Assembly (NCBI GenBank): GCA_022450395.1
Contig: JAKUQE010000012.1
Coordinates: forward strand, 2,810-66,809
DNA: 64,000 bases
Direction: 5' to 3'
Origin: Dehalococcoidia bacterium
Lineage (GTDB): Bacteria > Chloroflexota > Dehalococcoidia > Lucifugimonadales > UBA3495
Notes under the pieces: model-generated
The model's database searches: none
What the model saw: only the letters and a program-made list of their open reading frames with translations
Told to the model about the DNA's origin: nothing
Program-made: the position numbers and the translations under genes
Shown: positions 3,287-19,425 of the stretch, in pieces
How the letters are laid out: each line of letters starts with the position of its first letter
How positions within the stretch are numbered: position 1 is the first letter of the stretch

Positions 3287-3615
3287 AAATATTGCCTCTC
3301 CTTCCTCCGCCCTTCCGCATAAAAAACAACTTGTGGCGGTCTGGGAAACACATGTTCTAATAAACCGGGCGGCTAGTCAATGAGGAAGTGTCAGGCGGGG
3401 AGGTGGGGTGTTGGTATCGAGGAAAGTAGTAGGTGGGGTCGCCGGCCATCCCAGCTAGAAAACCTTGAAGCTAATCGGCTTCCTGAGTGGAAAGCTTGCG
3501 GATAGGCAAAAACAGCGTCCTCAAAACAGCATTGCGTCCTGTCAAAGTGAGGCTTGCCCCCGGAGGATCGTTGCCTTAAGAAGCAACCGACAGTAGGAAT
3601 CAGATTAGCCTTGGG

Positions 3616-5751
3616 CTAGCCTACCCCAGCCACCTTATAGATTACGTCGCTGTTTAGGTTGGCGATAAACAAGTTGCCGGAAGCATCGAATACGATACCT
3701 TGGGGTCCGCCGAATCCGGTGCCAAAGGAAGACACACTGCCTCCCGGAGTGATCTTGGTTATGGTGCCTTGAGTGGGGTCGGCATTGGTGGCATAGACAT
3801 TTCCGGCGCCATCGGTTACCAGGTCCATGATGGCCCCGGTGAGGGTCGCGAAATTCGTAGCCGCCCCTCCGCCGATAGGCGCCACCATTACTTGGCCGGT
3901 CCTGCTGCCCGCATACAACCGTCCAGCCGGGTCAAAAGCTATTCCATCCGGATTATTCAACCCCGTAGCGTATGTCGTCACATCACCGCTCGGGGTGATC
4001 TTAGACACGATACCCGCATTGACCTGGGCCGCGTATATGTTCCCCGACGTATCGCCTGTGATTCCCGAGATTCCGGCAAGGGTGGCGATTAAAGTTTTAC
4101 TGCCTCCCCCGTTAATATCAAACCTATATATGTGACCGACAGATTGACTGACCCAACCACCCACGAAAAGCTCCCCGGTCATCGGGTCGAAGTATATGTC
4201 TATTAAATCAACGCCCCCCAGCGCCACGGATTTAATCACATTGCCCGCTGGGCCGAACATGGTTGCGATGCCGCCGACCCTGTTGATGGTGTATATGTTT
4301 CCATTTGGATCAACGGTGATTCCAGTCGGGTCCGTGATTTCAGGCGCGAAAACAGTGACCGTGAATCCCGGGACCAGTGGCCCGGATTCCGGCGTGGGGG
4401 TCGGCGTGGGTGGTAACGGCGTGGGTGTGGGAGGTACGGGAGTGGGCGTCGGAGGGACCGGCGCAGGTGTGGGAGGCACGGGGGTAGGCGGCACCGGCGT
4501 GGGAGTAGCGGTTGGCGTCGGGACTTGGGTGGGCACCGGCCTCGGGGTTGGGGTAGCCGTAGCGGCAGGTGCGAGAGTGGGAGTGGGAGTGGGAGTGGGA
4601 GTGGTGGTAGGAGTGGAAGTGGCAAAATGAACCAGAGTCGGCATTGGAACTCGCGTGGCCGAAGGCGTTCGGGTAGGGGTGGGTGTGGCGAGAGGGGTGC
4701 GAGGAGGATTGTCATCGATCCGTTGGATGATTCGTTGATCGATGAGCCGGGCGATTCTGGCTACGTCGTCCAAGTGGATCTGGCCGCGCAGGCCTCCGGC
4801 GATCAGTTGGGCGGCTATCCGGCCCTGGGCAAACCACAGCATATAGACGTCTAGATTGATCGCGGCCGATTGAACCCTCATCAAGAAACCCGCTGTAGCA
4901 TCGCCGATGGCCGGAAGGTCTATGGCCTCGACCACAACATTCTCTGAACTAAATCCGGCCCCTTCCGCGAATGCCGGACCTGCCAGTTGGGCGAACAGCT
5001 GAGGGTCCATGGCTCTCATCACCAGAACCGGCGCACTGGCATCGGAGGAGGTGGCGTACATCTCGACGGTGCTGCTGAGATTGCTCAACTGAGATAACCC
5101 TAGAGTGAAGAACAACCCCTCTGCCTCAAATTCCCGCTCGTACGTAAGGAGGGCGTCGGTATCTTCGACGTAGCCTTCTCCTCCGATGATGGCCCCGGGA
5201 GCTATGTCCGCCAAAGTAGGCAATAGGGCGGGCAGGTTGTTGGTGTCGGTGGAGGCCGTTGGCACGGGGGTCAGGGTGCGGACCGGGGTAGGCGTGGTTT
5301 CGGGGGGCCGCGTCGGTGGTACGGAGGCCGGTGGCATGGCGGTGGCTCGTACGGCGGCGGAAGGTGCGAGGGTGGATGGTGCGGCGGCGGGAGGCACGGC
5401 GATGACCCGCACCAACCTCACTATCACAGTGTGGCTGGAGTTCATGTCTATCTTGGCGGACACTCCAACTTCGTCGTAAACCGGTCCAGCCCATTAATCA
5501 ACTTGCCAGCCCTTCTTGGGCAATATATCGATCGTCACCGTGCGGCCACGCACATATCGTCCACCGTCGATGGGCGTGGGATTGAGGAGAACATCCGCTG
5601 CTTCGGGAGGGTCCGCTCTGATTTCCAATTCGTGGGTGATTGTTATTGGTGTCGGCGTAGGTGCAGGCGGTGGGACGGGCGTCGGTACGACGGCGCATGC
5701 CACCCCGGCCAGAGACGCAATAATCACCAACGAGACAATCAGACGTTGCAT
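3616..5751 (-). pseudogene. secreted Pro/Thr-linker + NHL-repeat beta-propeller protein, interrupted by in-frame TAA (5494-5496)
   Basis: ORF 5494-5751 (signal peptide MQRLIVSLVIIASLAGVAC) and ORF 3616-5463 share one frame and are separated by a single TAA. The text runs on across the stop (..ILPKKGWQVD*WAGPVYDEV..). The C-terminus has NHL-like repeats (GIAFDPAGRLYA, GIVFDASGNLFIAN). Two PTPTP linkers. Confidence 0.7.
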
Positions 5752-5842: not shown

Positions 5843-7093
5843 CTAGGCGCCGGCGCTATCTAGGAACTCCTGCATGGGTTTGGTTTCCTGGGTGGATGCC
5901 TGCATGTCGCGAATCATGACTACGCCCTGCTCGATCTCGTCGTCCCCCAAGATCGCGGTGTAGGGGATTCCGAGAGCGTTGGCTTGGCGCATCTGCCCCC
6001 GTAGCCCACGGGAGCCGCTGCTCAGGATGGCTCCCACCCCGTTGGCCCGTAGCCGGGCGGCCAGCTCCAATGCGGCCGGGCGGGCGGCATCGCCCACGTT
6101 GGCCACCAGGTACTTGGGAGAAGGTTCATCGGGCACTTCCACTCCGCCGCGCTCCAGGTTCAAGGCCAGGCGCTCCATACCGGTGGCGAAGCCGATTCCC
6201 GGAGTGGAACGGCCACCCAGACTCTCGATCAGTCCGTCGTAACGGCCGCCGCCGCAGATGGTGGACTGAGCGCCCCCTTCCAGGGGCTGAATCTCGAAGA
6301 CGGTGCGGCTGTAGTAATCCAGACCACGCACCAGCCGGTGGTCGATCTCGTAGGGTATAGCCACGGCGTTAAGGTATCCCCTAAGGCTGGACCAGTGGTC
6401 CTGGCAGGCTTGGCACAGATTGTCCGAAGACCGGGGCGCTTCATCTCCCAGAGCCCGGCAGGTTTCAACCTTGCAATCCAAGAGACGAAGGGGGTTGCGG
6501 TCCAGACGCTGCCGGCATTCGGCGCAGAGCTTGCTCTCGTGACCCTGGTAATAGTTCTTCAGTTCGCCAACGTATGCCGGGCGGCATTCAGTGTCGCCGA
6601 TGCTGTTGACCAGCAAACTGGTGTCTTTCAGCCCCAGGGAGAGCATTAAACGCCAAGCCAGTTCGATGACCTCGGCGTCCACCGAAGGGTCGGCGTCTCC
6701 CAGCACTTCCACGCCGAACTGATGGTGCTCGCGAAATCGCCCAGCTTGAGGCCGTTCGTAGCGAAACACCGGGCAGAAGTAGTACATCCGCACCGGCTGG
6801 GGCAGGTTGTGCATGCCGTGTTCTAAATAGGCCCGGCAGACTGGGGCGGTGCCCTCGGGTCGCAGTGTCACTTGGTCGCCACCCCGGTCCTCGAAGGTGT
6901 ACATCTCCTTTTCCACGATGTCCGTGCCTTCCCCCACTGATCGGACGAACAGGTTCGCGTCCTCGAACACCGGAGTGTCGATCCGGCCAAAGCCATATTG
7001 CCTAGCCAGGTCTACGGCTTTGGATTCGATGTATCTCCAATACTTTTGGTCCTGGGGGAGCAGGTCGTTGGTGCCTCTGGGCGCTTGGAACAA
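5843..7093 (-). CDS. hisS: histidine--tRNA ligase
   Basis: MFQAPRGTNDLLP N-terminus, class II motifs, 416 aa. Confidence 0.95.
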   Translation of the reverse strand: MFQAPRGTNDLLPQDQKYWRYIESKAVDLARQYGFGRIDTPVFEDANLFVRSVGEGTDIVEKEMYTFEDRGGDQVTLRPEGTAPVCRAYLEHGMHNLPQPVRMYYFCPVFRYERPQAGRFREHHQFGVEVLGDADPSVDAEVIELAWRLMLSLGLKDTSLLVNSIGDTECRPAYVGELKNYYQGHESKLCAECRQRLDRNPLRLLDCKVETCRALGDEAPRSSDNLCQACQDHWSSLRGYLNAVAIPYEIDHRLVRGLDYYSRTVFEIQPLEGGAQSTICGGGRYDGLIESLGGRSTPGIGFATGMERLALNLERGGVEVPDEPSPKYLVANVGDAARPAALELAARLRANGVGAILSSGSRGLRGQMRQANALGIPYTAILGDDEIEQGVVMIRDMQASTQETKPMQEFLDSAGA

Positions 7094-8439: not shown

Positions 8440-9024
8440 TTATTGATCGTAGGTAGGGATCTGTAGTCCTAGACCGGCGGCTATGTACCGTTTCATGTTC
8501 TCCACGTAGATGCCGGTGGGGTCTTCCAACCGCTTCTGGTGTTCTTCGGTCAGCGGACGCACCTTGCCGGGCACGCCCAACACCAGTGAGTTGTCGGGGA
8601 TAACGCTGTCGGCCAGCACCAAGGCGGACGCGCCGATGAGCACGTAGTTACCGACTTTGGCGCTCTCCAGAATGGCGGCGTTCATGCCGATCAGCACGTT
8701 GTTTCCGACGATGCCGCCGTGGATAACCGCTCCGTGGGTCATCAGAACATTGTCGCCCAGCTCCAGATAGTCGTCGGTATGCAGGACGCAGTTATCCTGG
8801 ATGGAGCAGGCTTTTCCGATGATTATCTTACCGTAGTCGCCTCGAATCACGGCGCCCGGCCAGATGCTGGTGTCCTCGCCGATCTCAACGTCGCCGACGA
8901 TATAAGCAGTCTCACTGACGAAACAGGAGGGATGGATCTTTGGAGTTTTTCCATCGAGGCTGCGAATCACGGGGACCTCCGGTGTTGCTGATTGGGCCTT
9001 TGCCCTTCCGGTAAAAGGATACAC
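8440..9024 (-). CDS. gamma-carbonic-anhydrase-like hexapeptide-repeat protein (CaiE/PaaY-like)
   Basis: Left-handed beta-helix repeats: IVGDVEIGEDTSIWPGAVIRGD, HGAVIHGGIVGNNVLIG. Start codon uncertain. Confidence 0.85.
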   Translation of the reverse strand: MYPFTGRAKAQSATPEVPVIRSLDGKTPKIHPSCFVSETAYIVGDVEIGEDTSIWPGAVIRGDYGKIIIGKACSIQDNCVLHTDDYLELGDNVLMTHGAVIHGGIVGNNVLIGMNAAILESAKVGNYVLIGASALVLADSVIPDNSLVLGVPGKVRPLTEEHQKRLEDPTGIYVENMKRYIAAGLGLQIPTYDQ

Positions 9025-9078
9025 GGTGACTGGGACTATCGCCAGGGGAATTTTCGAGCAGTCAGCTATCAGCGGTCA

Positions 9079-9115
9079 GGGGAAAATCCCCCCAACCCCC
9101 CTTTATGAAAGGGGG
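9079..9115. repeat. G/C hairpin repeat (GGGGaaaatCCCC + CCCCCTTT-atg-AAAGGGGG), same family as 3041-3084
   Basis: Shares AAATCCCCC..CCCCCTTTAYGAAAGGGGG with the copy at 3048-3080. Lies just downstream of the VTT-domain gene on the minus strand. Confidence 0.55.
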
Positions 9116-9126
9116 CGAAACACGGT

Positions 9127-9714
9127 CTACAAGCCGAAGACTTGGGTGAGCCAGGCTAGGCTGTATTTGCAGGCGTAGGCGAAGGTGATGAACTTGATTG
9201 TCTTGCCCACCCAAACTACGCTCAGGAAGCCCCAAAGAGGGTACCGGAGGGCGCCGGCGGCGATGCCGACGATGTCGAAGATGGGGTTGGGCACCAGCGA
9301 AACCAAGAACAAGGGAAGCCAGCCCCGGCGGCGCACCAAGGACTCCAGCCGATTGTATAGGCGATACCTCCGGGCCATGTCTCGTCCGCTGTAACCCAGA
9401 AAGTACCCGGTTAGTTCGCCCACACTCTCGCTGGTCCCGGCGATGAGGCCCAAGAGCGCTGGGTTTAGGAAAATGGCCCCCGCGCATACCGCTCCCAAGG
9501 CGGGCACCGGAATTATCAGACCGGCGCTGGCGATCAGTGATGCCAGGGCCACTCCGCCGTAGCCTGCCTGAGCTGGGGTCAATTGATCCCGCAGTAAAAA
9601 GGCGGACGCCGAGGCGGCCAGGACCGCTAGGAGTATCCCGATCCGAATAAGGGTGCCGGGATTACGCCAATCCCACCGGGCGGGCGCGGAAAGCACCCGG
9701 ACCAAGCTGTTCAT
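9127..9714 (-). CDS. VTT/DedA-like (TVP38/TMEM64-type) membrane protein
   Basis: Multi-TM. GYFLGYSGRD..LVPNPIFDIVGIAAGALRYP resembles the VTT domain. 4-nt overlap with the upstream gene. Confidence 0.65.
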   Translation of the reverse strand: MNSLVRVLSAPARWDWRNPGTLIRIGILLAVLAASASAFLLRDQLTPAQAGYGGVALASLIASAGLIIPVPALGAVCAGAIFLNPALLGLIAGTSESVGELTGYFLGYSGRDMARRYRLYNRLESLVRRRGWLPLFLVSLVPNPIFDIVGIAAGALRYPLWGFLSVVWVGKTIKFITFAYACKYSLAWLTQVFGL

Positions 9715-10580
9715 AGAGAAACGGGCCCAGGGATGGACCCGCTTTGGTCATCCAGGCCGCCCTGAAGAAACAGGGTCAACAGGGCGTTGAACTCGTCGGC
9801 TTTCTCCATGTGGGGCCAATGCCCGCACTGAGGAAAGGTGCGTACCAAGCATTGGGGGATCGCCTCTTTTATCCTACCGGCGTGGCTTACCGGGATGATA
9901 ATGTCCTCTTCTCCCCAAAGGCACATCAGAGGAGAAGACACTTGAGGCAATCGATCAAGAACCCGCCATCGCCGGCGAAGCCCCAGGAGGTTAATGCTGG
10001 AGCGGATCGAGCGGAGGGTGGATCTGGTGGAGCCGGGCAAAAACTGGACACGGGCCATTTCGGTCAGCACCTCGTCGGGTATCGAAGACGGCTCATGAAA
10101 AACTCGCTTGTTCATACCCATCAGGCTGTATATCCAGCGCTGGAAGAGGAACTCCCCTAAACCGGGCACAGACATCAAACGTAACACCCAAGAAACCTGG
10201 CGGCCGATTCCTCCGGGAGCGACCAGCGCCAAGCGGCCGGTTTTCTCCGGATTCTCAAGAGCGAACAGCGCGGCCACCAGTCCCCCGGCTGAGTTACCCA
10301 CCAACGAAGCCCTCTCTACCCCCAAGGCGCGGAGAAACTGTCCGGTGAATTCGACGGCGTTGCGGGGGCCATAGTCCAGAGCATCTGGCTTTTCCGAGTC
10401 ACCGTGGCCGGGCAGGTCTGGGGCCAGAACCGTGAACCCCGCGTTGGCTAGGGGCTCAATATTTCGCCGCCAGGTGTCCAAGGACGAACCCAATCCGTGC
10501 AACAGCAACACCACCGGCCCTTGCCCGGCCTCCACGTAGTGGATATTGACCCCGTTAAGGGCGATTGTCTTGTGCTCCAA
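9711..10580 (-). CDS. alpha/beta hydrolase
   Basis: HGLGSS oxyanion region, nucleophile elbow GNSAGG, C-terminal CGHWPH. Confidence 0.85.
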   Translation of the reverse strand: MEHKTIALNGVNIHYVEAGQGPVVLLLHGLGSSLDTWRRNIEPLANAGFTVLAPDLPGHGDSEKPDALDYGPRNAVEFTGQFLRALGVERASLVGNSAGGLVAALFALENPEKTGRLALVAPGGIGRQVSWVLRLMSVPGLGEFLFQRWIYSLMGMNKRVFHEPSSIPDEVLTEMARVQFLPGSTRSTLRSIRSSINLLGLRRRWRVLDRLPQVSSPLMCLWGEEDIIIPVSHAGRIKEAIPQCLVRTFPQCGHWPHMEKADEFNALLTLFLQGGLDDQSGSIPGPVSL

Positions 10581-10929
10581 AGAGTTCCTCGGCCGGCGTA
10601 TGGCCTCACGAATTACTCTATATCGCCGAATATCTTCGACATTCCCTACTCACGATCGATTTTCTGGCCCGAACCCGGTTCTTGGACCCAGTTGCCTAGA
10701 TCCCCCTTCCACCGAAGGGCCGGGATGACGGACCGGTAATCCAGACATATAAGAGAAACTAGGCTAGAAACAGCCGCCGCAGGTCAGGGTGCAATTCCCC
10801 GACCGCGGCGCCCACACCCGTTCGTGGTGAGCCTGTCGAACCACCGCGTCTCGACCCTTCCACAGGGTCAGGGCGGACGCAAGGCGCGCCGGCAGCTATT
10901 TGGATATTAGCGCGGCCCGGAGCCGCTCC

Positions 10930-13380
<2,451 letters not shown>

Positions 13381-13391
13381 GGGATTGTCTC

Positions 13392-13751
13392 CTAGACTAC
13401 CTGATTGGGTCCGCGCCGACGGTTGGATGGGCCGTTTCGGTCCCGCAGGCGGGTGACTTCATTGGTTAGGGTTTGAACGTCGGATTCCAATTGTTCGATG
13501 CGGTTCATCAACTTTAGGGCAACTTCCGCCCCCGCCAAGTTGACGCCCATGTCCTCGGTGAGGGTTTTGATGCGATGTAGCCGTTCGATGTCGGCCATGG
13601 AGAAAAGTCTCTGCCTGCCTTCCGTTCTTGATGGCGAGATCAGGCTCACTTTCTCGTAGTAACGAAGAGTTTGGGCGTGAACTCCCACCATTCGGGCGGC
13701 TACGCTGATGACGAAACAAGGGTTCTCTCTGAATTGCTGCTCGGTGGCCAT
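13392..13751 (-). CDS. hspR: MerR-family heat-shock repressor (HspR-like)
   Basis: MerR HTH FVISVAARMVGVHAQTLRYYEKVSLISPSR. Immediately downstream of a J-domain gene, the cbpA/dnaJ-hspR arrangement known elsewhere. Confidence 0.8.
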   Translation of the reverse strand: MATEQQFRENPCFVISVAARMVGVHAQTLRYYEKVSLISPSRTEGRQRLFSMADIERLHRIKTLTEDMGVNLAGAEVALKLMNRIEQLESDVQTLTNEVTRLRDRNGPSNRRRGPNQVV

Positions 13752-13753
13752 TT

Positions 13754-14638
13754 TTAACTCCCCTTTCCGGCCCGCAATTCCTTAAAGCGGAGGAACAACT
13801 CTTGCTCCTCGGGGCTTAAGTCTGTGGGCAAGGTAACTTTGATCGTGGCGTACAGGTCTCCTTTGACATCGGGCTCGTTAAGGACCGGCATCCCCTGTCC
13901 TGCCAAGCGGAACCGGCGGCCGTTTTGAGTCTCCGGTGGAATGGTGAGCGCCAAGCGGCCGGTCAAGGTGGTGACGGCCAAGTCGCTGCCCAAGACGGCG
14001 TCTTCCAGCGGGGTCTCCACCTCGGTGTATAGGTCCCTGCCTTGCCGCCGGAATCGCGGGTGATCTTTGATGGACACAACCAGGAAGAACTCTCCTTCCG
14101 AACCACCGTCGGGGGCGAAGTGGATCTTGGAGCCGTTGTCGACGCCCGCCGGGATCTTCACTTCCAAACGGCGTCCGCCTGGCAACCCCACCAGCCGGAC
14201 GGCCCCCTTGTGGGCTTCTTCCAGAGAGATATCGACGGGATATTCGGTGGGCGGCGGTTTTGTTGGCCGTGGAGCAAAATCACGTTGCCCCATATCATTA
14301 AACAGACCTTCGAAGATGCTGCCGCCCATGCCGGAGAAGGAAACCGAGTCGTTGCCGCCCTGACCGGACCAGCGGAACCCGCCCCGGCGCCCCCGTGCCG
14401 CCTCCTCGATGCGTTCGGAGTTGGCCCAGTTGTCGCCGTGTCTATCGTACCGGCGGCGTTTGGCCTCGTCGGACAGAACGCTGTAAGCCTCGTTGATCTG
14501 CTTGAATTTTTCCTCCGACGTTTTCTCGCCACCGTTCACGTCGGGGTGGAATTGCCGGGCCATGCTGCGGTAAGCCTGCCGGATGTCTTTCTGGCTGGCA
14601 TTCCTGGGAACGCCCAATATGTCATAGAAATCGGCCAT
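13754..14638 (-). CDS. DnaJ-class co-chaperone without zinc-finger domain (CbpA-like)
   Basis: J-domain DFYDILGVPRNASQKDIRQAYRSMARQFHPD. No CxxCxGxG repeats. C-terminal substrate-binding domains. Confidence 0.9.
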   Translation of the reverse strand: MADFYDILGVPRNASQKDIRQAYRSMARQFHPDVNGGEKTSEEKFKQINEAYSVLSDEAKRRRYDRHGDNWANSERIEEAARGRRGGFRWSGQGGNDSVSFSGMGGSIFEGLFNDMGQRDFAPRPTKPPPTEYPVDISLEEAHKGAVRLVGLPGGRRLEVKIPAGVDNGSKIHFAPDGGSEGEFFLVVSIKDHPRFRRQGRDLYTEVETPLEDAVLGSDLAVTTLTGRLALTIPPETQNGRRFRLAGQGMPVLNEPDVKGDLYATIKVTLPTDLSPEEQELFLRFKELRAGKGS

Positions 14639-14665
14639 GGGAATGCTCCTGTGTTACTAGACAAC

Positions 14666-14694
14666 AGTATAGCTAAATTGATCGGTTCAGTCAA
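14666..14694 (-). promoter_or_regulatory. sigma70-type promoter TTGACT-N17-TATACT for the dnaJ-like/hspR/clpC operon
   Basis: Minus strand: -35 at 14694-14689 and -10 at 14671-14666. SD AGGAG follows, before the ATG at 14638. Confidence 0.6.
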
Positions 14695-14745
14695 TGTATC
14701 TTCTTTAATACCAGTACTTAAATTAGTTTTAATGTATAAAGATAC

Positions 14746-14774
14746 TTGACAAGAACCACTTAAGTTTATATACT
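14746..14774 (+). promoter_or_regulatory. sigma70-type promoter TTGACA-N17-TATACT for hsp20, with palindrome ACTTAAGT in the spacer
   Basis: -35 at 14746-14751 and -10 at 14769-14774, read directly. Mirror image of the minus-strand promoter. Confidence 0.65.
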
Positions 14775-14854
14775 ACGCTTTGCAAGGTAACGGAGGGTAT
14801 ACAGACCTAGCCGGAGCCGAGATTCACTTAACTTCCTTAGGAGGAATGCAGAAC

Positions 14855-15334
14855 ATGTTACTACAGCGTTGGGACCCATTATTCGACTTCAGGCGAAGGC
14901 ACTACACCACGGATCGTTTCGTGCGCGGATTTCCCCAGGCCGCGAATGGCGGGGGAATCAAGAAGTGGTCCATAGCCTTGGACGCCGTTGAGGAGGACGA
15001 CAAACTGGTCGTTCGCGCCTCTTTGCCCGGAATCGCTCCGGAGGAGATTAAAGTAACCATTGAAGACGGCGTGCTCACCATTGACGGTGAGACCAAGGTC
15101 GATGAGGAAGGAAAGGTAGGTAACTACCTGATCCGGGAGCGCCGCACCGGCTCGTTCCACCGCGCCATGCGTCTACCCGACACGGTGGACGTCGATCAGG
15201 CGGAGACGAACTACGATGAGGGCATCCTGACCGTCGCCTTTCCCAAGGTTGAGTCCAAGCGAGCCAGACAGCTCACCGTTACCAGCGGGAAGGCCGTAAC
15301 CTCCGGCCAGGAGCCGAAGAGCGACAAGAAGTAA
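14855..15334 (+). CDS. Hsp20/alpha-crystallin small heat-shock protein
   Basis: ACD-like core (LVVRASLPGIAPEEIKVTIEDGVLTIDGE...FHRAMRLP). SD AGGAGG at 14839-14844. ATG 14855 has better spacing than 14846. The track start 14780 would lie at the predicted TSS. Confidence 0.9.
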   Translation: MLLQRWDPLFDFRRRHYTTDRFVRGFPQAANGGGIKKWSIALDAVEEDDKLVVRASLPGIAPEEIKVTIEDGVLTIDGETKVDEEGKVGNYLIRERRTGSFHRAMRLPDTVDVDQAETNYDEGILTVAFPKVESKRARQLTVTSGKAVTSGQEPKSDKK

Positions 15335-15357: not shown

Positions 15358-15402
15358 ATGGGGGAGCGCTCCGCACGTTGGGGCGTTCCCCCATTGTTTT
15401 TT
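15358..15402 (+). terminator. rho-independent terminator after hsp20 (ATGGGGGA...TCCCCCAT + T6)
   Basis: 8-bp outer stem 15358-15365 / 15387-15394, then TTGTTTTTT. Confidence 0.6.
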
Positions 15403-15438
15403 CGAAGGGGGAATCACTTAAATTCAGGAGGCAATCCA

Positions 15439-15657
15439 ATGGTAACTCTAGACGTTAGACCCAAAGACGAAGCAGAAATAAATTCAGAAGCAACCGAACC
15501 GGTGGACATTGCCATGGAAGAACCAAACGTGACGAATAAAGGTGGTGGCGAGAATTCCACCTGGTTTTATTCGATGCCGTTTCCAGGCGTGCGCTACTAC
15601 TCTTTCGGCCGGCCGGATCCAGTCAAAACTCCGGACAAGGCAGCCGCGGGGCACTGA
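15439..15657 (+). CDS. small hypothetical protein (72 aa)
   Basis: Consensus SD AGGAGG 7 nt upstream of ATG 15439. No family recognised. The longer track ORF (15358) starts inside the terminator. Confidence 0.45.
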   Translation: MVTLDVRPKDEAEINSEATEPVDIAMEEPNVTNKGGGENSTWFYSMPFPGVRYYSFGRPDPVKTPDKAAAGH

Positions 15658-16137: not shown

Positions 16138-16212
16138 TCCCGAGTAGCTCAGCGGTAGAGCGGGCGGCTGTTAACCGCTAGGTCCGAGGTTCGAATCCTC
16201 GCTCGGGAGCCA
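16138..16212 (+). tRNA. tRNA-Asn (anticodon GTT), CCA encoded
   Basis: Cloverleaf folded by hand: acceptor TCCCGAG/CTCGGGA, anticodon loop CTGTTAA, T-arm CGAGG-TTCGAAT-CCTCG. Confidence 0.95.
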
Positions 16213-16214
16213 AA
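16168..16214 (+). repeat. 47-nt direct repeat, copy 1 (3' half of tRNA-Asn from the anticodon loop); att-like
   Basis: 46/47 identical to 17734-17780. Confidence 0.9.
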
Positions 16215-16215
16215 A

Positions 16216-16470
16216 AACTCGTAAAATGATTTCCATCAACCGAAGGATAATCCCAAAGTCGATACTGTCTCCGAACAGGGTTCACGATGACACGGGTGTA
16301 TACGTTTTGGACATCCGCGGAAGTGAGCAAGGCACCGAACCGCCGGATTGGAACGTTAAAGTTGAGGGCGTGTCGGATGTGGTGCGGCCGGGGCCCGGGT
16401 ATACGCTTCAGTAATCCAGCAGCGACGACTACCCGGACTTGACGACAGCGGAGGTCGAGATTCAGGGCAG
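16216..16470 (-). pseudogene. tyrosine recombinase (integrase) C-terminal relic
   Basis: The ORF 16178-16525 translation ..RVVVAAGLLKRIPGPRPHHIRHALNFNVPIRRFGALLTSADVQNVYTRV.. resembles the integrase catalytic end (HxLRH...LLGH....YTHV), with H replaced. The N-terminal two thirds are missing. Confidence 0.5.
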
Positions 16471-16486
16471 GGCTGTTAGCCACCGG

Positions 16487-16515
16487 CCGAGAAGCCGGGT
16501 GATTTAGGGACAGCG
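16487..16515 (+). repeat. 29-nt direct repeat copy A (CCGAGAAGCCGGGTGATTTAGGGACAGCG) containing a hairpin
   Basis: 28/29 identical to 16558-16586, with a 42-nt spacer. Confidence 0.8.
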
Positions 16516-16557
16516 TCGAAACCAATCAGGTCGAAGTCCCGGGTGGTCAGGCATCAC

Positions 16558-16586
16558 CCGAGAAGCCGGGTGATTTAGGGATAGCG
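16558..16586 (+). repeat. 29-nt direct repeat copy B, with perfect hairpin CACCCG-agaagc-CGGGTG
   Basis: See copy A. Confidence 0.8.
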
Positions 16587-16603
16587 AGAAAGATGGACGG
16601 GGC

Positions 16604-16631
16604 TTGCCTTTCGGGTACAGGCGACTACAAT
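16604..16631 (+). promoter_or_regulatory. candidate promoter TTGCCT-N16-TACAAT for the 3-ORF cassette
   Basis: Hexamers read directly. SD TAGGAGGAG follows, before ATG 16659. Confidence 0.5.
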
Positions 16632-16658
16632 GACCGGGTTATCTAGGAGGAGCTGGCA

Positions 16659-16997
16659 ATGGCAGACGACGACCCAACAGTAACACAGCCAATTCAGAGA
16701 GGGGCTCTTATTAACGCTCGTGGTAGATGGACCGGCGGAGCAGAACTTCCCCTATTGTTCGCCAACCAACTATGGGCCGCAAACTTCGGCCCGCACTTTG
16801 AATTAACTTTCGGGCATAATGAATTGCCATACGAATTAATTACCCCTGAGTTGGTAACAAAACTGGAAGAAGAAGGGGTAGAAATCAAGGCGATTTCAAG
16901 GGTTGCAGTTGGTCCAGATGAACTTGAGGCCATGATCCAGATACTTGCCGGCGTCCTGCAACAGTGGAAGGATAGGAGACCGAACGATGCCAGATGA
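16659..16997 (+). CDS. hypothetical protein (112 aa), cassette ORF1
   Basis: Strong SD. ..LLFANQLWAANFGPHFELTFGH.. is reminiscent of DUF3467-type proteins (from memory, weak). Confidence 0.6.
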   Translation: MADDDPTVTQPIQRGALINARGRWTGGAELPLLFANQLWAANFGPHFELTFGHNELPYELITPELVTKLEEEGVEIKAISRVAVGPDELEAMIQILAGVLQQWKDRRPNDAR

Positions 16998-17481
16998 ACA
17001 ATTCGCGATTATGTCAGGCTCCACAGATCGACTTCCCAGACCTTATTGGCTCCCGGACGCAGGTCATTGGAACCTAGGCGACGTTGGCGATCGAGAGTTT
17101 CAATACAATGTGCTCGAACGTGGGGGCGTCGTGATTCTGGGTGGCGAAATATCTGGCACAGTAATAGCAGGCAGCGGCGAGATAAATATTCGCTATGCTC
17201 CTGTACCTCGTTACGCTTTGCAGAACGAAGTCGAAGCACTCTACGAGAGAATAGCAGCGCTTGAAGCGCAGGCGATCGCCGAACCAGAGCCTCTACGGGA
17301 GATCCCGAAAGACCAAGCGCGGGAAGAAATAAGAGCACTGTTTAGCGAAGGTGGGATTATATATATGTCCGATGTCGCTGATCGCTTAAACTTACCCGAT
17401 GAGCTGGTCGTAGAGATTTGTTTAGAGTTAGAAGGCGCAGGGGAGTTGAATCGTCGTGACAACGCAGTGGACGCTCGGTGA
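16987..17481 (+). CDS. hypothetical protein (164 aa), cassette ORF2; coiled-coil plus possible C-terminal winged helix
   Basis: SD AGGAGA before ATG 16987, overlapping the ORF1 stop by 11 nt. C-terminus IYMSDVADRLNLPDELVVEICLELEGAGEL looks wHTH-like. Confidence 0.6.
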   Translation: MPDEQFAIMSGSTDRLPRPYWLPDAGHWNLGDVGDREFQYNVLERGGVVILGGEISGTVIAGSGEINIRYAPVPRYALQNEVEALYERIAALEAQAIAEPEPLREIPKDQAREEIRALFSEGGIIYMSDVADRLNLPDELVVEICLELEGAGELNRRDNAVDAR

Positions 17482-17656
17482 CGGCATTAAGGGAAATCGG
17501 ATTATTGTTGTAGCTGAGAGTATCCGAAAAGATCCGGGGAAAAGGATCAAACTCACATCGGCGCATACTGGGGAGAGGGCTAGGGCACGCGGTGAGGCCT
17601 ACGCCTATATCGACAAAGCTTTCGAATCCGTGCCTCGCTCCGCGCGGCCTAGATAG
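17456..17656 (+). CDS. hypothetical protein (66 aa), cassette ORF3
   Basis: GTG start overlapping ORF2 by 26 nt. Basic protein. Weak support. Confidence 0.35.
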   Translation: MTTQWTLGDGIKGNRIIVVAESIRKDPGKRIKLTSAHTGERARARGEAYAYIDKAFESVPRSARPR

Positions 17657-17688
17657 CAACATTTATTAACTGATCGGGGTCGAAAACA

Positions 17689-17722
17689 GGAGGGCGCCAG
17701 GCCGTGCCTCCGTTCGGTTTTT
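17689..17722 (+). terminator. hairpin GGAGG...CCTCC followed by gttcggttttt
   Basis: Lies between cassette ORF3 and the right-hand tRNA repeat. Confidence 0.5.
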
Positions 17723-17733
17723 GACGCGGACAA

Positions 17734-17780
17734 CTGTTAACTGCTAGGTCCGAGGTTCGAATCCTCGCTCGGGAGCCAAA
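17734..17780 (+). repeat. 47-nt direct repeat, copy 2 (displaced 3' half of tRNA-Asn); att-like
   Basis: ctgttaactgctaggtccgaggttcgaatcctcgctcgggagccaaa. One mismatch to the intact tRNA. No 5' half present. Confidence 0.9.
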
Positions 17781-18052
17781 CCACCCAACCAATATCTCAT
17801 TAAATCCCGTGATGTTTTTCCTGGTTCTCTTAGCTTCGTACACCTTAGACTAGATACATCTCCAATTCATGTTCAGACCGCTGATGCTTCGCGCCTGACC
17901 AAATCGTTGTCCAAAGCGAATCCGGCGCTGAAGGAACATGGCCAGGCGGGTGAAGTCTGAACCGAATTGTAGATCACCACGTCGCCGCGATGCAGTCGTA
18001 AGAGCAGTCCATCGCGGTGCTCAATCTATGCTTGGGAGTAAACGGGAAAGAA

Positions 18053-18234
18053 TGGACTACAAGTTATTCGACGATCGCACTAAGGAATTTCTTGGCTGGC
18101 TGCGGAACCAAGGATTCCCGGCGGCAGGTAATATCATTTCCTGGAAAGGAAGAAATCGGAAGTTGACGGACGCGGAAGTACAGAAGACAACCCAAACTCT
18201 CAGTGCCGCGATCGTCTTCGCTCGGGAGATTTAG
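18053..18234 (+). CDS. hypothetical small protein (60 aa)
   Basis: ATG 18053 within track ORF 17938-18234. Low-GC region. Weak SD. Confidence 0.3.
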
Positions 18235-18423
18235 GGTCAATATAACGGCGGCGAACACGCCTTAATGGCTGGTATAGTCCAGGCACAAATATCGTAGAGC
18301 GTTCGATAGACAGTCGCGGGAATCATCTTTATTTCTCTAAAATTACCCTTGATGCCCAGACCCTTGCCATTCCCGCGCCCACTAGATAGACTCGGCTCAT
18401 AACAATTTAGGAGCCTTTATCGA

Positions 18424-19425
18424 ATGGCAGAGCAGATCCATCCCAATATTGTTGCCCGGACTGTTGGAAGAGAATCGGTGCTAACCGTAGTCGGCGCCGC
18501 ACCGGACGCTAGGGGGCCGTGGTCTTTCATAACTGGGATACCGAACCCCGGCTTCGATATGGTTGGGCCTCCTGCCCAATACCTGTCGGTGGCTGCTTGG
18601 GCCGCTTGAACCGTGGTCACGGTGGTAGGCGTGGCCTACCGTGGCAACATCGCCCTGGAAGACATCATGGTCGATTTTGAGGTGGAGGCGGTTGAGCTTC
18701 CCAATGCGATCGGGTTCGGTGTTAGGGAACTTGTCACCCTGAAAGGCCGGATATCGGAGCCGGAGCGGGTCCGGCTTGAGCGGGCTTCCCGGTATTGCCC
18801 AGTTGGACAGGCTCTGACCAAGGGTTCCATGGAGATCGAGGATGAGATTCGATGGAGCAATGGTGAGGTGGCCTCAGCCTCTCCATTGACGGAATCCCTT
18901 CCCCCTTCGGACTGGGCTCTACCCGCCATACCTACCGGATCCGTCCATGGCCGATACCTTCTGGACACAAAAGAGTACGACGATGAAGGGAAGATGGAGC
19001 ACGAAGGGGAGGCCAAGATTTCCATCCAATGCCAAAACCTGACTCGGACAAGCCGCTGGACCATACTCGGCGGACATAGCTCTGAAGGCTGGGTAACGCC
19101 ACCGTTTCCCTTGGGCCACGCTGGGTGGGCAGCATCGACCGTTTCTACATTGAGCCGTCTGTTGCCCCAAGGGACGGAAGACGCAGATGGCCTCAGTGTG
19201 GAGTTGTATATGGCGGCCGGTGGCGGCGGTAGGGGGCAGTCCCAGTCCAACGCCGCCGAGGGCGTGGTGGCTCGCCGCGGGGTAACGCGCCGGATAATGG
19301 TGCCCGGAACTCCCAGCACCACCCCGATCGAGGCGGTACAAGCGGCGCTTCAACGCGACCCGATAACACTGGCCTACCTGAACGGGGGCGTACTTTTACA
19401 TGACGAGGTGGTGGTAGAGTCGTAG
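18424..19425 (+). CDS. OsmC/Ohr-like hydroperoxidase-family protein with in-frame TGA (18607-18609) at the first catalytic Cys position; candidate selenoprotein with a second degenerate OsmC-like half
   Basis: Track ORFs 18424-18609 and 18613-19425 share one frame. SD AGGAG precedes ATG 18424 and none precedes GTG 18613. The joined text is ..PPAQYLSVAAWAA[TGA]TVVTVVGVAY..RASRYCPVGQAL... A hairpin lies downstream. Confidence 0.7.
18618..18643 (+). promoter_or_regulatory. SECIS-like hairpin CAC-ggt-GGTAGGC-gtg-GCCTACC-GTG
   Basis: 7-bp upper stem, GTG loop, 3-nt 5' bulge, 3-bp lower stem. The loop lies 21 nt after the TGA. Confidence 0.5.

Follow-up and report, generated by a model that had tools for sequence, protein, structure and literature searches.

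A three-gene operon headed by a divergent DUF3467-superfamily gene on a small tRNA-Asn islet of marine Chloroflexi

What could keep one compact operon intact inside an otherwise decaying genomic element? The question is raised by a 64,000-nt stretch of contig JAKUQE010000012.1 (assembly GCA_022450395.1) from a Dehalococcoidia bacterium, hereafter the window, in which three overlapping open reading frames (ORF1, ORF2 and ORF3) lie behind an intact tRNA-Asn gene and are bounded by direct repeats of its 3' half. A first-pass annotation of this DNA, made by reading the sequence without database searches, described the three ORFs as a self-contained cassette, carried by a tRNA-Asn element that had lost its integrase and presumably retained for a selected function such as defence, addiction or regulation. 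Here, we compare the cassette with homologous loci (L numbers) and ask what it encodes, how it is carried and which function suits it best. The three ORFs are real genes under purifying selection, the insertion that holds them is very probably a decayed integrative element, and we tentatively read the operon as a toxin-antitoxin-like module with three components. The main value of the locus is a testable functional lead for the protein family DUF3467 (PF11950).

Three overlapping genes under purifying selection

The coordinates of the three ORFs are exactly those first proposed, as are their overlapping junctions, which measure 11 nt between ORF1 and ORF2 and 26 nt between ORF2 and ORF3. Their features are listed here with lengths in amino acids (aa), isoelectric points (pI) and the ratio of non-synonymous to synonymous substitution rates (dN/dS) from pairwise comparison of the window, L001 and L007.

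16659..16997, plus strand: ORF1, 112 aa, pI 4.7, divergent DUF3467-superfamily protein (profile relatives; dN/dS 0.26-0.37; fused to an ORF2-like protein in L015)
16987..17481, plus strand: ORF2, 164 aa, pI 4.3, with a hypervariable N-terminal half (aa 1-70), a coiled-coil helix (aa 75-98) and an acidic winged-helix-like domain (aa ~105-158) (dN/dS ~0.25 for the whole protein)
17456..17656, plus strand: ORF3, 66 aa, GTG start, basic (pI 10.6), motif LTSxHTGE...GEAYAYID (dN/dS 0.18-0.25; called as a gene in independent assemblies)

These ratios are far beyond chance and mark the ORFs as coding. Within ORF2 the constraint is uneven: the N-terminal half has a dN/dS of 0.33-0.64, the C-terminal half one of 0.09-0.15. 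The window arrangement is present in at least four independent assemblies, in which the gene callers called all three ORFs. The early description of a self-contained and selectively maintained operon on an integrase-less element bounded by tRNA-Asn repeats is borne out; across the three genes dN/dS is 0.18-0.37.

Homologues of ORF1 and ORF2 amount to a handful each among 5.8 billion proteins, and all come from marine metagenomes or Chloroflexi genome bins. The order of the trio and its overlapping junctions are kept in tRNA-Asn islets of at least four diverged lineages (window, L001, L007 and L025), and these islets share one chromosomal position, after ClpB-HspR-DnaJ and Hsp20. The synteny extends beyond the islets. 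In L008, a Dehalococcoidia genome, the same trio has no tRNA within 8 kb and adjoins a DDE transposase fragment. In L015, ORF1 and ORF2 are fused into a single 277-aa protein (3382-4390) between MoxR/DUF58 and UbiA/FtsJ genes; aa 20-124 of the fusion are ORF1-like, its aa 185-275 share 48% identity with the C-terminus of ORF2, and an overlapping, GTG-started ORF3-like gene that the gene caller had missed follows. The trio therefore recurs in three unrelated genomic settings and, because it also occurs without the tRNA element, the operon is best seen as an independent functional module. The fusion is a strong argument that ORF1 and ORF2 act together, and their functional coupling is firmly supported.

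The first-pass annotation noted that ORF1 vaguely recalls DUF3467, and the likeness proves real at the level of the family. ORF1 of the window has no match in Pfam at E <= 1, and two homologues stay below the PF11950 gathering score of 25 bits (15.4 bits for the close homologue P0008 and 14.2 bits for the L008 homologue). A search of 1.84 billion representatives with an ORF1-family profile, in turn, finds 74 relatives at E <= 1e-3. PF11950 is matched by 12 of 65 profile relatives (best E = 2.7e-8), and many close matches of the ORF1 family bear a precomputed PF11950 assignment. Because its profile relatives match PF11950, ORF1 is a divergent member of the DUF3467 superfamily. Proteins of the uncharacterised DUF3467 family are about 90-110 aa long, and the family has no known function, effectively no literature and no solved structure in the PDB searches that we ran; membership in a family without known function or structure explains nothing yet. 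A resemblance of the ORF1 family to GatC (E = 0.034) is limited to a short helical segment.

Homologues of ORF1 (30% identity, BLAST E = 2e-9; PF11950) also head other three-gene cassettes with overlapping genes. One of these, recurrent and unannotated, encodes a DUF3467-like protein (110 aa), an uncharacterised protein of ~130 aa and a PIN domain, and occurs in four different neighbourhoods.

L010, 4465-5586: DUF3467-like/~130-aa/PIN cassette
L016, 2964-4112: DUF3467-like/~130-aa/PIN cassette
L018, 1054-2178: DUF3467-like/~130-aa/PIN cassette
L020, 151-1299: DUF3467-like/~130-aa/PIN cassette

The PIN matches in these sister cassettes score 33-40 bits, above the Pfam cut-off, and in L010-L012 the cassette adjoins a 771-aa DNA methyltransferase. 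A further cassette of the ORF1 family has two uncharacterised proteins of 160 and 169 aa downstream and lies beside a DDE transposase. The DUF3467-like component is therefore associated with varied downstream gene pairs, including one whose last member is a nuclease of a classic toxin type.

ORF2 joins two very different halves. The N-terminal half is hypervariable, with insertions and deletions, and the Gly-rich stretch that had been singled out as a feature falls there and is not conserved. The coiled coil proposed at the same time is conserved, and the AlphaFold2 model reaches a predicted local distance difference test (pLDDT) score of 70-85 over aa 72-157, in which the C-terminus is a three-helix bundle. 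When this bundle is compared with the PDB by Foldseek, the top listed matches are nearly all winged-helix domains, mostly from transcription regulators, with a root-mean-square deviation of 1-3 Å over 44-59 columns and E values of 0.16-1, none of them <= 0.001. Where a C-terminal winged helix was predicted at first, ORF2 has a conserved, modelled winged-helix-like fold. A role as a DNA-binding regulator is doubtful, because all seven homologues have a strongly acidic domain here, with a net charge of -8 to -10 and a pI of 4.1-4.4. The ORF2 C-terminus does not show the basic DNA-contacting surface or recognition helix expected of MarR/FapR/DeoR-like regulators. Hence, ORF2 is probably not a classical DNA binder, and its winged-helix-like domain is more likely to bind a basic partner. 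A transmembrane segment in the N-terminus was also considered and is unconvincing (maximum 19-residue hydropathy 0.8-1.5).

ORF3 is 47-67% identical across L001, L007, L008, L015 and L025, and the pI of its homologues lies between 9.3 and 10.6. Its match to phrog_9909 (E = 0.0019) is taken as chance because four ORF3 homologues do not have it, and a likeness to the ClpP handle region (PDB, E = 0.93) was rejected at an hhalign probability of 0.87%. For the three ORFs together, searches of Pfam, NCBIfam, PHROGs and PADLOC gave nothing reproducible. PADLOC-DB holds no match for ORF1-3 or for the sister-cassette proteins and returned weak coiled-coil noise only for the L015 fusion. No recognised toxin domain was found in ORF2 or ORF3 with Pfam, NCBIfam, PADLOC or the PDB, and PIN is confined to the sister cassettes. 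These searches agree with the first-pass annotation, which had recognised no known toxin-antitoxin or defence family among the three proteins.

Signals for expression flank the genes on both sides.

16604..16631, plus strand: promoter-like TTGCCT-N16-TACAAT (hexamer scan; -10 ACTACAAT kept in L007, L001 and L025)
17689..17722, plus strand: hairpin followed by GG-TTTTT, adjoining the right attachment repeat (fold -24.5 kcal/mol, z = -0.9)

The strong Shine-Dalgarno sequence claimed for ORF1 is present as AGGAGGAG at 16645-16652, 8 nt before the ATG. The operon had also been credited with its own promoter: the hexamers exist, although a single hit against 1.5 expected by chance in 1.8 kb is no more than chance provides, and it is the retention of the -10 ACTACAAT at the same position in three diverged element versions, not the hexamer match alone, that supports the promoter reading. 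Similarly, the hairpin and T-tract reported before the right repeat are there, and the ~50 nt before that repeat are almost invariant in three lineages, although a terminator scan did not call the structure at ~17689-17722 and its folding energy is not unusual. This segment probably serves as a terminator, as a binding sequence for a recombinase, or as both. A perfect 8-bp palindrome, ATCACCCG-N6-CGGGTGAT at 16553-16574, lies about 30 bp upstream of the -35 hexamer, forms a hairpin in the fold and is a candidate operator; it is part of the second copy of a 46-nt repeat that belongs to the left arm of the element.

The tRNA-Asn element and its turnover

The insertion is delimited by attachment (att) repeats and contains, besides the operon, only a short left arm.

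16138..16212, plus strand: tRNA-Asn (GTT), intact (ARAGORN; Rfam tRNA 69.8 bits; direct repeat)
16168-16214, plus strand: attL core, the 3' half of tRNA-Asn (direct repeat)
16226..16507, plus strand: pseudogene remnant of an S24 (LexA/CI/UmuD-type) peptidase, C-terminal part, truncated at the att core (same-frame L001 homologue matches PF00717)
16470..16515, plus strand: 46-nt direct repeat, copy 1, the 3' end of the S24 frame, terminating in GRAVSHRPRSRVI and the stop (repeat search; frame comparison; 90.6% identical to L001)
16541..16586, plus strand: 46-nt repeat, copy 2, leftover tail of a small DnaJ-type zinc-finger ORF (repeat search; ORF intact in L025 and L001)
17734..17780, plus strand: attR core, a displaced tRNA-Asn 3' fragment that begins in the anticodon loop (direct repeat, 1 mismatch in 47)

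The 3' half of tRNA-Asn recurs as a 55-nt direct repeat at 17726-17780 (93% identity), within which the strict 47-nt core differs from 16168-16214 at one position. The repeats enclose 1,566 bp, an insertion of ~1.57 kb behind the tRNA-Asn gene of this marine Chloroflexi genome, and the cassette is poorer in GC (50-55%) than the flanks (57-58%). An intact tRNA gene with its displaced 3' fragment as a direct repeat around foreign DNA is the arrangement by which tRNA islands are recognised, and tyrosine integrases that act on tRNA genes usually leave a repeat of this kind, with its start in the anticodon loop. No integrase gene is present in 16213-17780, where all coding space is accounted for and the sole remnant of an element gene is the S24 fragment. 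No recombinase was found among 10 candidate window ORFs tested, including those around tRNA-Gln, which are metabolic or unassigned, and no integrase-bearing partner element turned up in any collection searched.

We are confident, short of certainty, that 16213-17780 is a decayed integrase-less integrative element at the anticodon-loop-to-3'-end site of tRNA-Asn, of which a truncated S24 repressor pseudogene, the debris of a zinc-finger gene and one intact operon survive. The left arm carries this conclusion, because it consists of a truncated LexA/CI-type S24 peptidase pseudogene. Loss of the integrase was part of the first-pass description, and decay of a larger element, which would entail that loss, gains support from this remnant, which abuts attL: the islet is the stump of a larger temperate-type element.

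In the window, the S24 frame is interrupted by an in-frame TAA at 16412-16414 and its Pfam match is lost. The L001 counterpart (L001:4461-4745) matches PF00717 (E = 2.6e-12, 46.9 bits, profile positions 47-116 of 116), has no start codon and begins at the att core. Judged by its frame, this part of the left arm is a pseudogene remnant. Its last ~32 codons are 90.6% identical between the window and L001, and the chromosomal flanks 79.5%; across 16413-16508, eight of the nine differences from L001 are synonymous in a codon-by-codon reading made by eye, not by a tool. Selection in a source element that is still active may account for this synonymous bias in the tail, despite the decayed upstream part. 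L025 (~82-280) and L001 (4763-4945) carry, ahead of the ORF1 promoter and after the S24 remnant, an ORF of 60-66 aa with four CxxC knuckles, which is a zinc finger of DnaJ type (GRXCR1-2_C at 27-30 bits, with sub-threshold matches to DnaJ_CXXCXGXG and Anti-TRAP). In L025 it terminates in the GRAVSHRPRSRVI tail, as the S24 frame does, and the window retains that tail only. The region upstream of the promoter, in appearance mere spacer, turns out to be pseudogene debris instead. A structured RNA was also considered for the left arm and rejected: Rfam finds the tRNA only, folding z-scores are unremarkable, and the conservation fits a protein-coding frame, that of S24, which accounts for it.

Comparison of the window with L007 indicates that the history of the element differs from that of its flanks. 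The flanks are 94-100% identical (about 97%) up to the 3' end of the tRNA, identity then drops, beginning exactly at the tRNA end, to 86-89%, and it falls to 47-83% across the ORFs. Synonymous divergence (dS) between the two is 0.065 for DnaJ and 0.074 for Hsp20, against 0.47 for ORF1, 1.03 for ORF2 and 1.36 for ORF3. Since a 7- to 20-fold synonymous excess is not explicable by faster protein evolution, the elements have separate histories. The fall in identity at the tRNA end, together with a cassette dS far above that of the flanking genes, argues that the element turns over as a unit.

Right after its attR, L007 has a second copy of the left arm (6721-6962, equivalent to L022 8826-9056), which is 84% identical to the first and is cut off by the contig end after 185 nt. 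The L007 genome thus has elements in tandem at tRNA-Asn. Decay of attR varies among the lineages, with 1 mismatch in 47 in both the window and L007, 0 in 40 in L025 and 7 in 47 in L001. Remnants that are flanked by att sites, lack an integrase and can be moved by a related element integrating in tandem are known as cis-mobilisable elements (CIMEs). Here too both att sites are kept without recombination or transfer genes, and the pattern agrees with what is described for CIMEs, namely att-site insertion or replacement, or recombination between tandem copies.

The neighbourhood of the element has features of its own. Directly upstream of the tRNA, at 10930-15334, ClpB, a MerR-type (HspR-like) regulator and DnaJ lie on the minus strand, with a divergent Hsp20. 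The DnaJ-Hsp20 intergenic region (~14650-14800) is AT-rich (GC 0.43) and is the sole flank segment that falls to 82% identity with L007. A 99-aa ORF between Hsp20 and the tRNA (15358-15657) encodes a protein 79% identical to its L007 counterpart within DNA that is 96-97% identical, which may reflect a frame difference or a non-coding region. Outside attR, the right flank (17781-18612) holds a small conserved ORF at 17938-18234, 77% identical to L001 over aa 37-98, and is followed by a gene for a 270-aa protein at 18613-19425; neither has a Pfam match. The L001 version of the element is 2.36 kb long and has three extra small ORFs (63, 38 and 110 aa) at L001 4961-5635 without a family match; the one of 110 aa has a degenerate version of the repeat motif at its end. 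Beside the L008 cassette, the region 8448-11209 holds the DDE transposase fragment (DDE_Tnp_1_6, 30 bits), and the stretches 8708-9316 and 9350-11209 resemble, by eye only, what we take to be a split mutS gene.

Candidate functions of the operon

Among the functions considered, we lean, with less than even confidence, towards a tripartite toxin-antitoxin-like addiction or defence module. We infer which protein would be toxin, neutraliser and helper as follows. ORF3, the small basic protein, would be the effector. ORF2 would neutralise it through the conserved, strongly acidic winged-helix domain and dimerise through the coiled coil. ORF1, the DUF3467-like protein, would bind the variable N-terminal half of ORF2 and so stabilise or control it, in a role akin to that of the dedicated chaperone of toxin-antitoxin-chaperone (TAC) systems and without homology to SecB. 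As an autoregulatory operator, the module would use the palindrome that precedes the promoter.

This proposal draws on the sister cassettes that end in PIN, the pairing of charges, the overlapping genes, the fused protein of L015 and the element's turnover. The opposite charges of ORF2 (pI 4.3) and ORF3 (pI 10.6) are only suggestive as a sign of antitoxin and toxin. The layout is that of type II toxin-antitoxin systems, with small overlapping genes in one operon on variable, att-bounded DNA, and turnover of the element is typical of selfish or defence cargo. A toxin-antitoxin-like module would also explain why this cargo alone has survived the decay of the element.

Several results weigh against this proposal. 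ORF3 has no toxin fold or family in Pfam, NCBIfam, PHROGs, PADLOC or the PDB, and to our knowledge nothing is known for proteins of its kind. Homology of ORF2 to the middle protein of the PIN cassettes was rejected (hhalign probability 1.3%), so the analogy with those cassettes runs through ORF1 alone. For ORF1, the AlphaFold2 model from a 4-sequence alignment has a pLDDT of 40 and is unusable, and identity as a SecB-like chaperone was rejected at the sequence level (hhalign probability 0.15% against E. coli SecB); ORF1 and its homologues have no SecB match in Pfam, and no SecB structure is among the PDB matches. The module is very rare: 185,579 species genomes yielded a single locus. Housekeeping genes surround the L015 copy, and nothing there points to a mobile element. 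The module is likewise absent from viral, phage and plasmid collections, each searched with its own set of queries: tblastn found no match for ORF1 or ORF2 in the phage collection and none for ORF1, ORF3 or the L010 homologue of ORF1 in the plasmid collection, and viral contigs, queried with ORF2, the S24 fragment, the att core and the right-end motif, returned nothing. A phage or plasmid origin was rejected on the same empty searches.

A rather doubtful alternative is that the operon is the regulatory module of the element itself, for immunity, a lysogeny switch or excision, with ORF3 as a small basic DNA-binding protein, such as an excisionase (recombination directionality factor) or a Cro-like regulator, and with ORF2 and ORF1 as an acidic antagonist or co-factor, acting on the palindrome and the att-adjacent sequences. 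The module lies just downstream of the CI/LexA-type repressor remnant and in the same orientation, small size and basic charge are typical of excisionases and are those of ORF3, the attR-adjacent sequence and the promoter-adjacent palindrome are conserved, and the tandem second copy in L007 implies that the att sites have been used. However, ORF3 matches no helix-turn-helix (HTH) or excisionase model, an integrase is missing both from the element and from the 10 window ORFs tested, and a role that only serves an integrase is hard to explain because the trio is intact in L008 and L015, where tRNA, att repeat and every other element gene are absent.

It is unlikely that the operon is an anti-phage defence system other than a classical toxin-antitoxin module, in which the hypervariable N-terminal half of ORF2 would sense a phage product, with ORF1 and ORF3 as its partners in signalling or as effectors. 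The juxtaposition of a hypervariable half, with its indels, and a nearly invariant C-terminus would suit a sensor, element turnover between near-identical genomes would suit defence cargo, and one sister cassette adjoins the large DNA methyltransferase. The dN/dS of the variable region (0.33-0.64) nevertheless indicates relaxed rather than positive selection; PADLOC gives no matches, the window cassette has no enzymatic effector domain, and neither the window nor L008 nor L015 offers a defence-island neighbourhood.

Proximity to the heat-shock cluster could also suggest a host accessory for proteostasis or stress, with the DUF3467-like protein as a general chaperone-like factor, given that the islet directly follows HspR-DnaJ-ClpB and Hsp20 in the window, L001 and L007 and that a MoxR AAA+/DUF58 pair lies divergently to the L015 copy. 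We regard this as very unlikely: the tRNA-Asn target explains the position, the att repeats enclose the cassette, its history is not that of the heat-shock genes, and L008 has no chaperone neighbours. That the ORFs are non-functional relics of a decayed element, or that one of them is a novel recombinase moving the element, draws on the visible decay of the rest of the element and on its nearly intact att repeats and is hardly credible, given purifying selection on all three ORFs, synteny kept in three contexts, proteins of 66-164 aa with no recombinase-like domain or catalytic motif detected, and a trio that also exists without repeats.

Returning to the toxin-antitoxin-like module, a broader and distinctly more speculative proposal is that DUF3467-like proteins define a hitherto unrecognised class of three-component conflict modules, in which a DUF3467 helper would accompany a modular, sometimes fused, neutraliser and interchangeable effectors (a PIN nuclease in some cassettes and a new basic protein of 65 aa here), and which in marine Chloroflexi would ride on miniature integrase-less tRNA-Asn islets swapped between near-identical genomes. 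We consider this generalisation doubtful.

Comparison with known systems

If the toxin-antitoxin-like reading is true, the locus would provide a first functional handle on DUF3467, add a helper architecture that does not involve SecB to the multi-component toxin-antitoxin and defence systems, and define a new small basic effector protein. If the operon is an ordinary regulator of a dead prophage, the result is a routine refinement of annotation. In addition, the comparisons document turnover of very small islets with att flanks in uncultured marine Chloroflexi, about whose mobile elements little is known. Both the islet and the multi-gene toxin-antitoxin-like cassette are known kinds of system, built here from uncharacterised families.

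The closest functional parallel is with TAC systems (HigB/HigA/SecB-like). As there, three small genes are co-transcribed (here in a predicted operon), the proposed target of one component is a variable segment of the neutraliser with little structure, and members of the helper family, here DUF3467-like, precede more than one kind of downstream pair, among them one with a PIN toxin. The helper in our case is not SecB-like and its gene comes first, not last; the window cassette has no recognised toxin or antitoxin domain and is known from sequence alone.

The omega-epsilon-zeta, PaaR-PaaA-ParE and VapBC/PIN systems share with the cassette the order of accessory, neutraliser and effector, the overlapping junctions, and an acidic neutraliser followed by a basic last gene, and the sister cassettes end in a PIN protein as VapC does. 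In contrast to these systems, ORF3 is not a PIN, zeta or ParE protein, ORF1 is not a ribbon-helix-helix or HTH repressor, and the winged helix of ORF2 is acidic and probably not DNA-binding.

For DUF3467 (PF11950) itself, the profiles of the ORF1 family provide the connection, whereas ORF1 of the window lies below any threshold. As a carrier, the islet resembles Islander-type tRNA islands and CIMEs in its intact tRNA gene, displaced 3' fragment and lack of an integrase, in the tandem copy of L007 and in the element-level replacement between genomes that are ~97% identical in the flanks. It differs from them in that none of the collections searched yielded a partner element or integrase, its mobilisation being putative, and in its size of 1.57 kb, which is far below that of usual islands.

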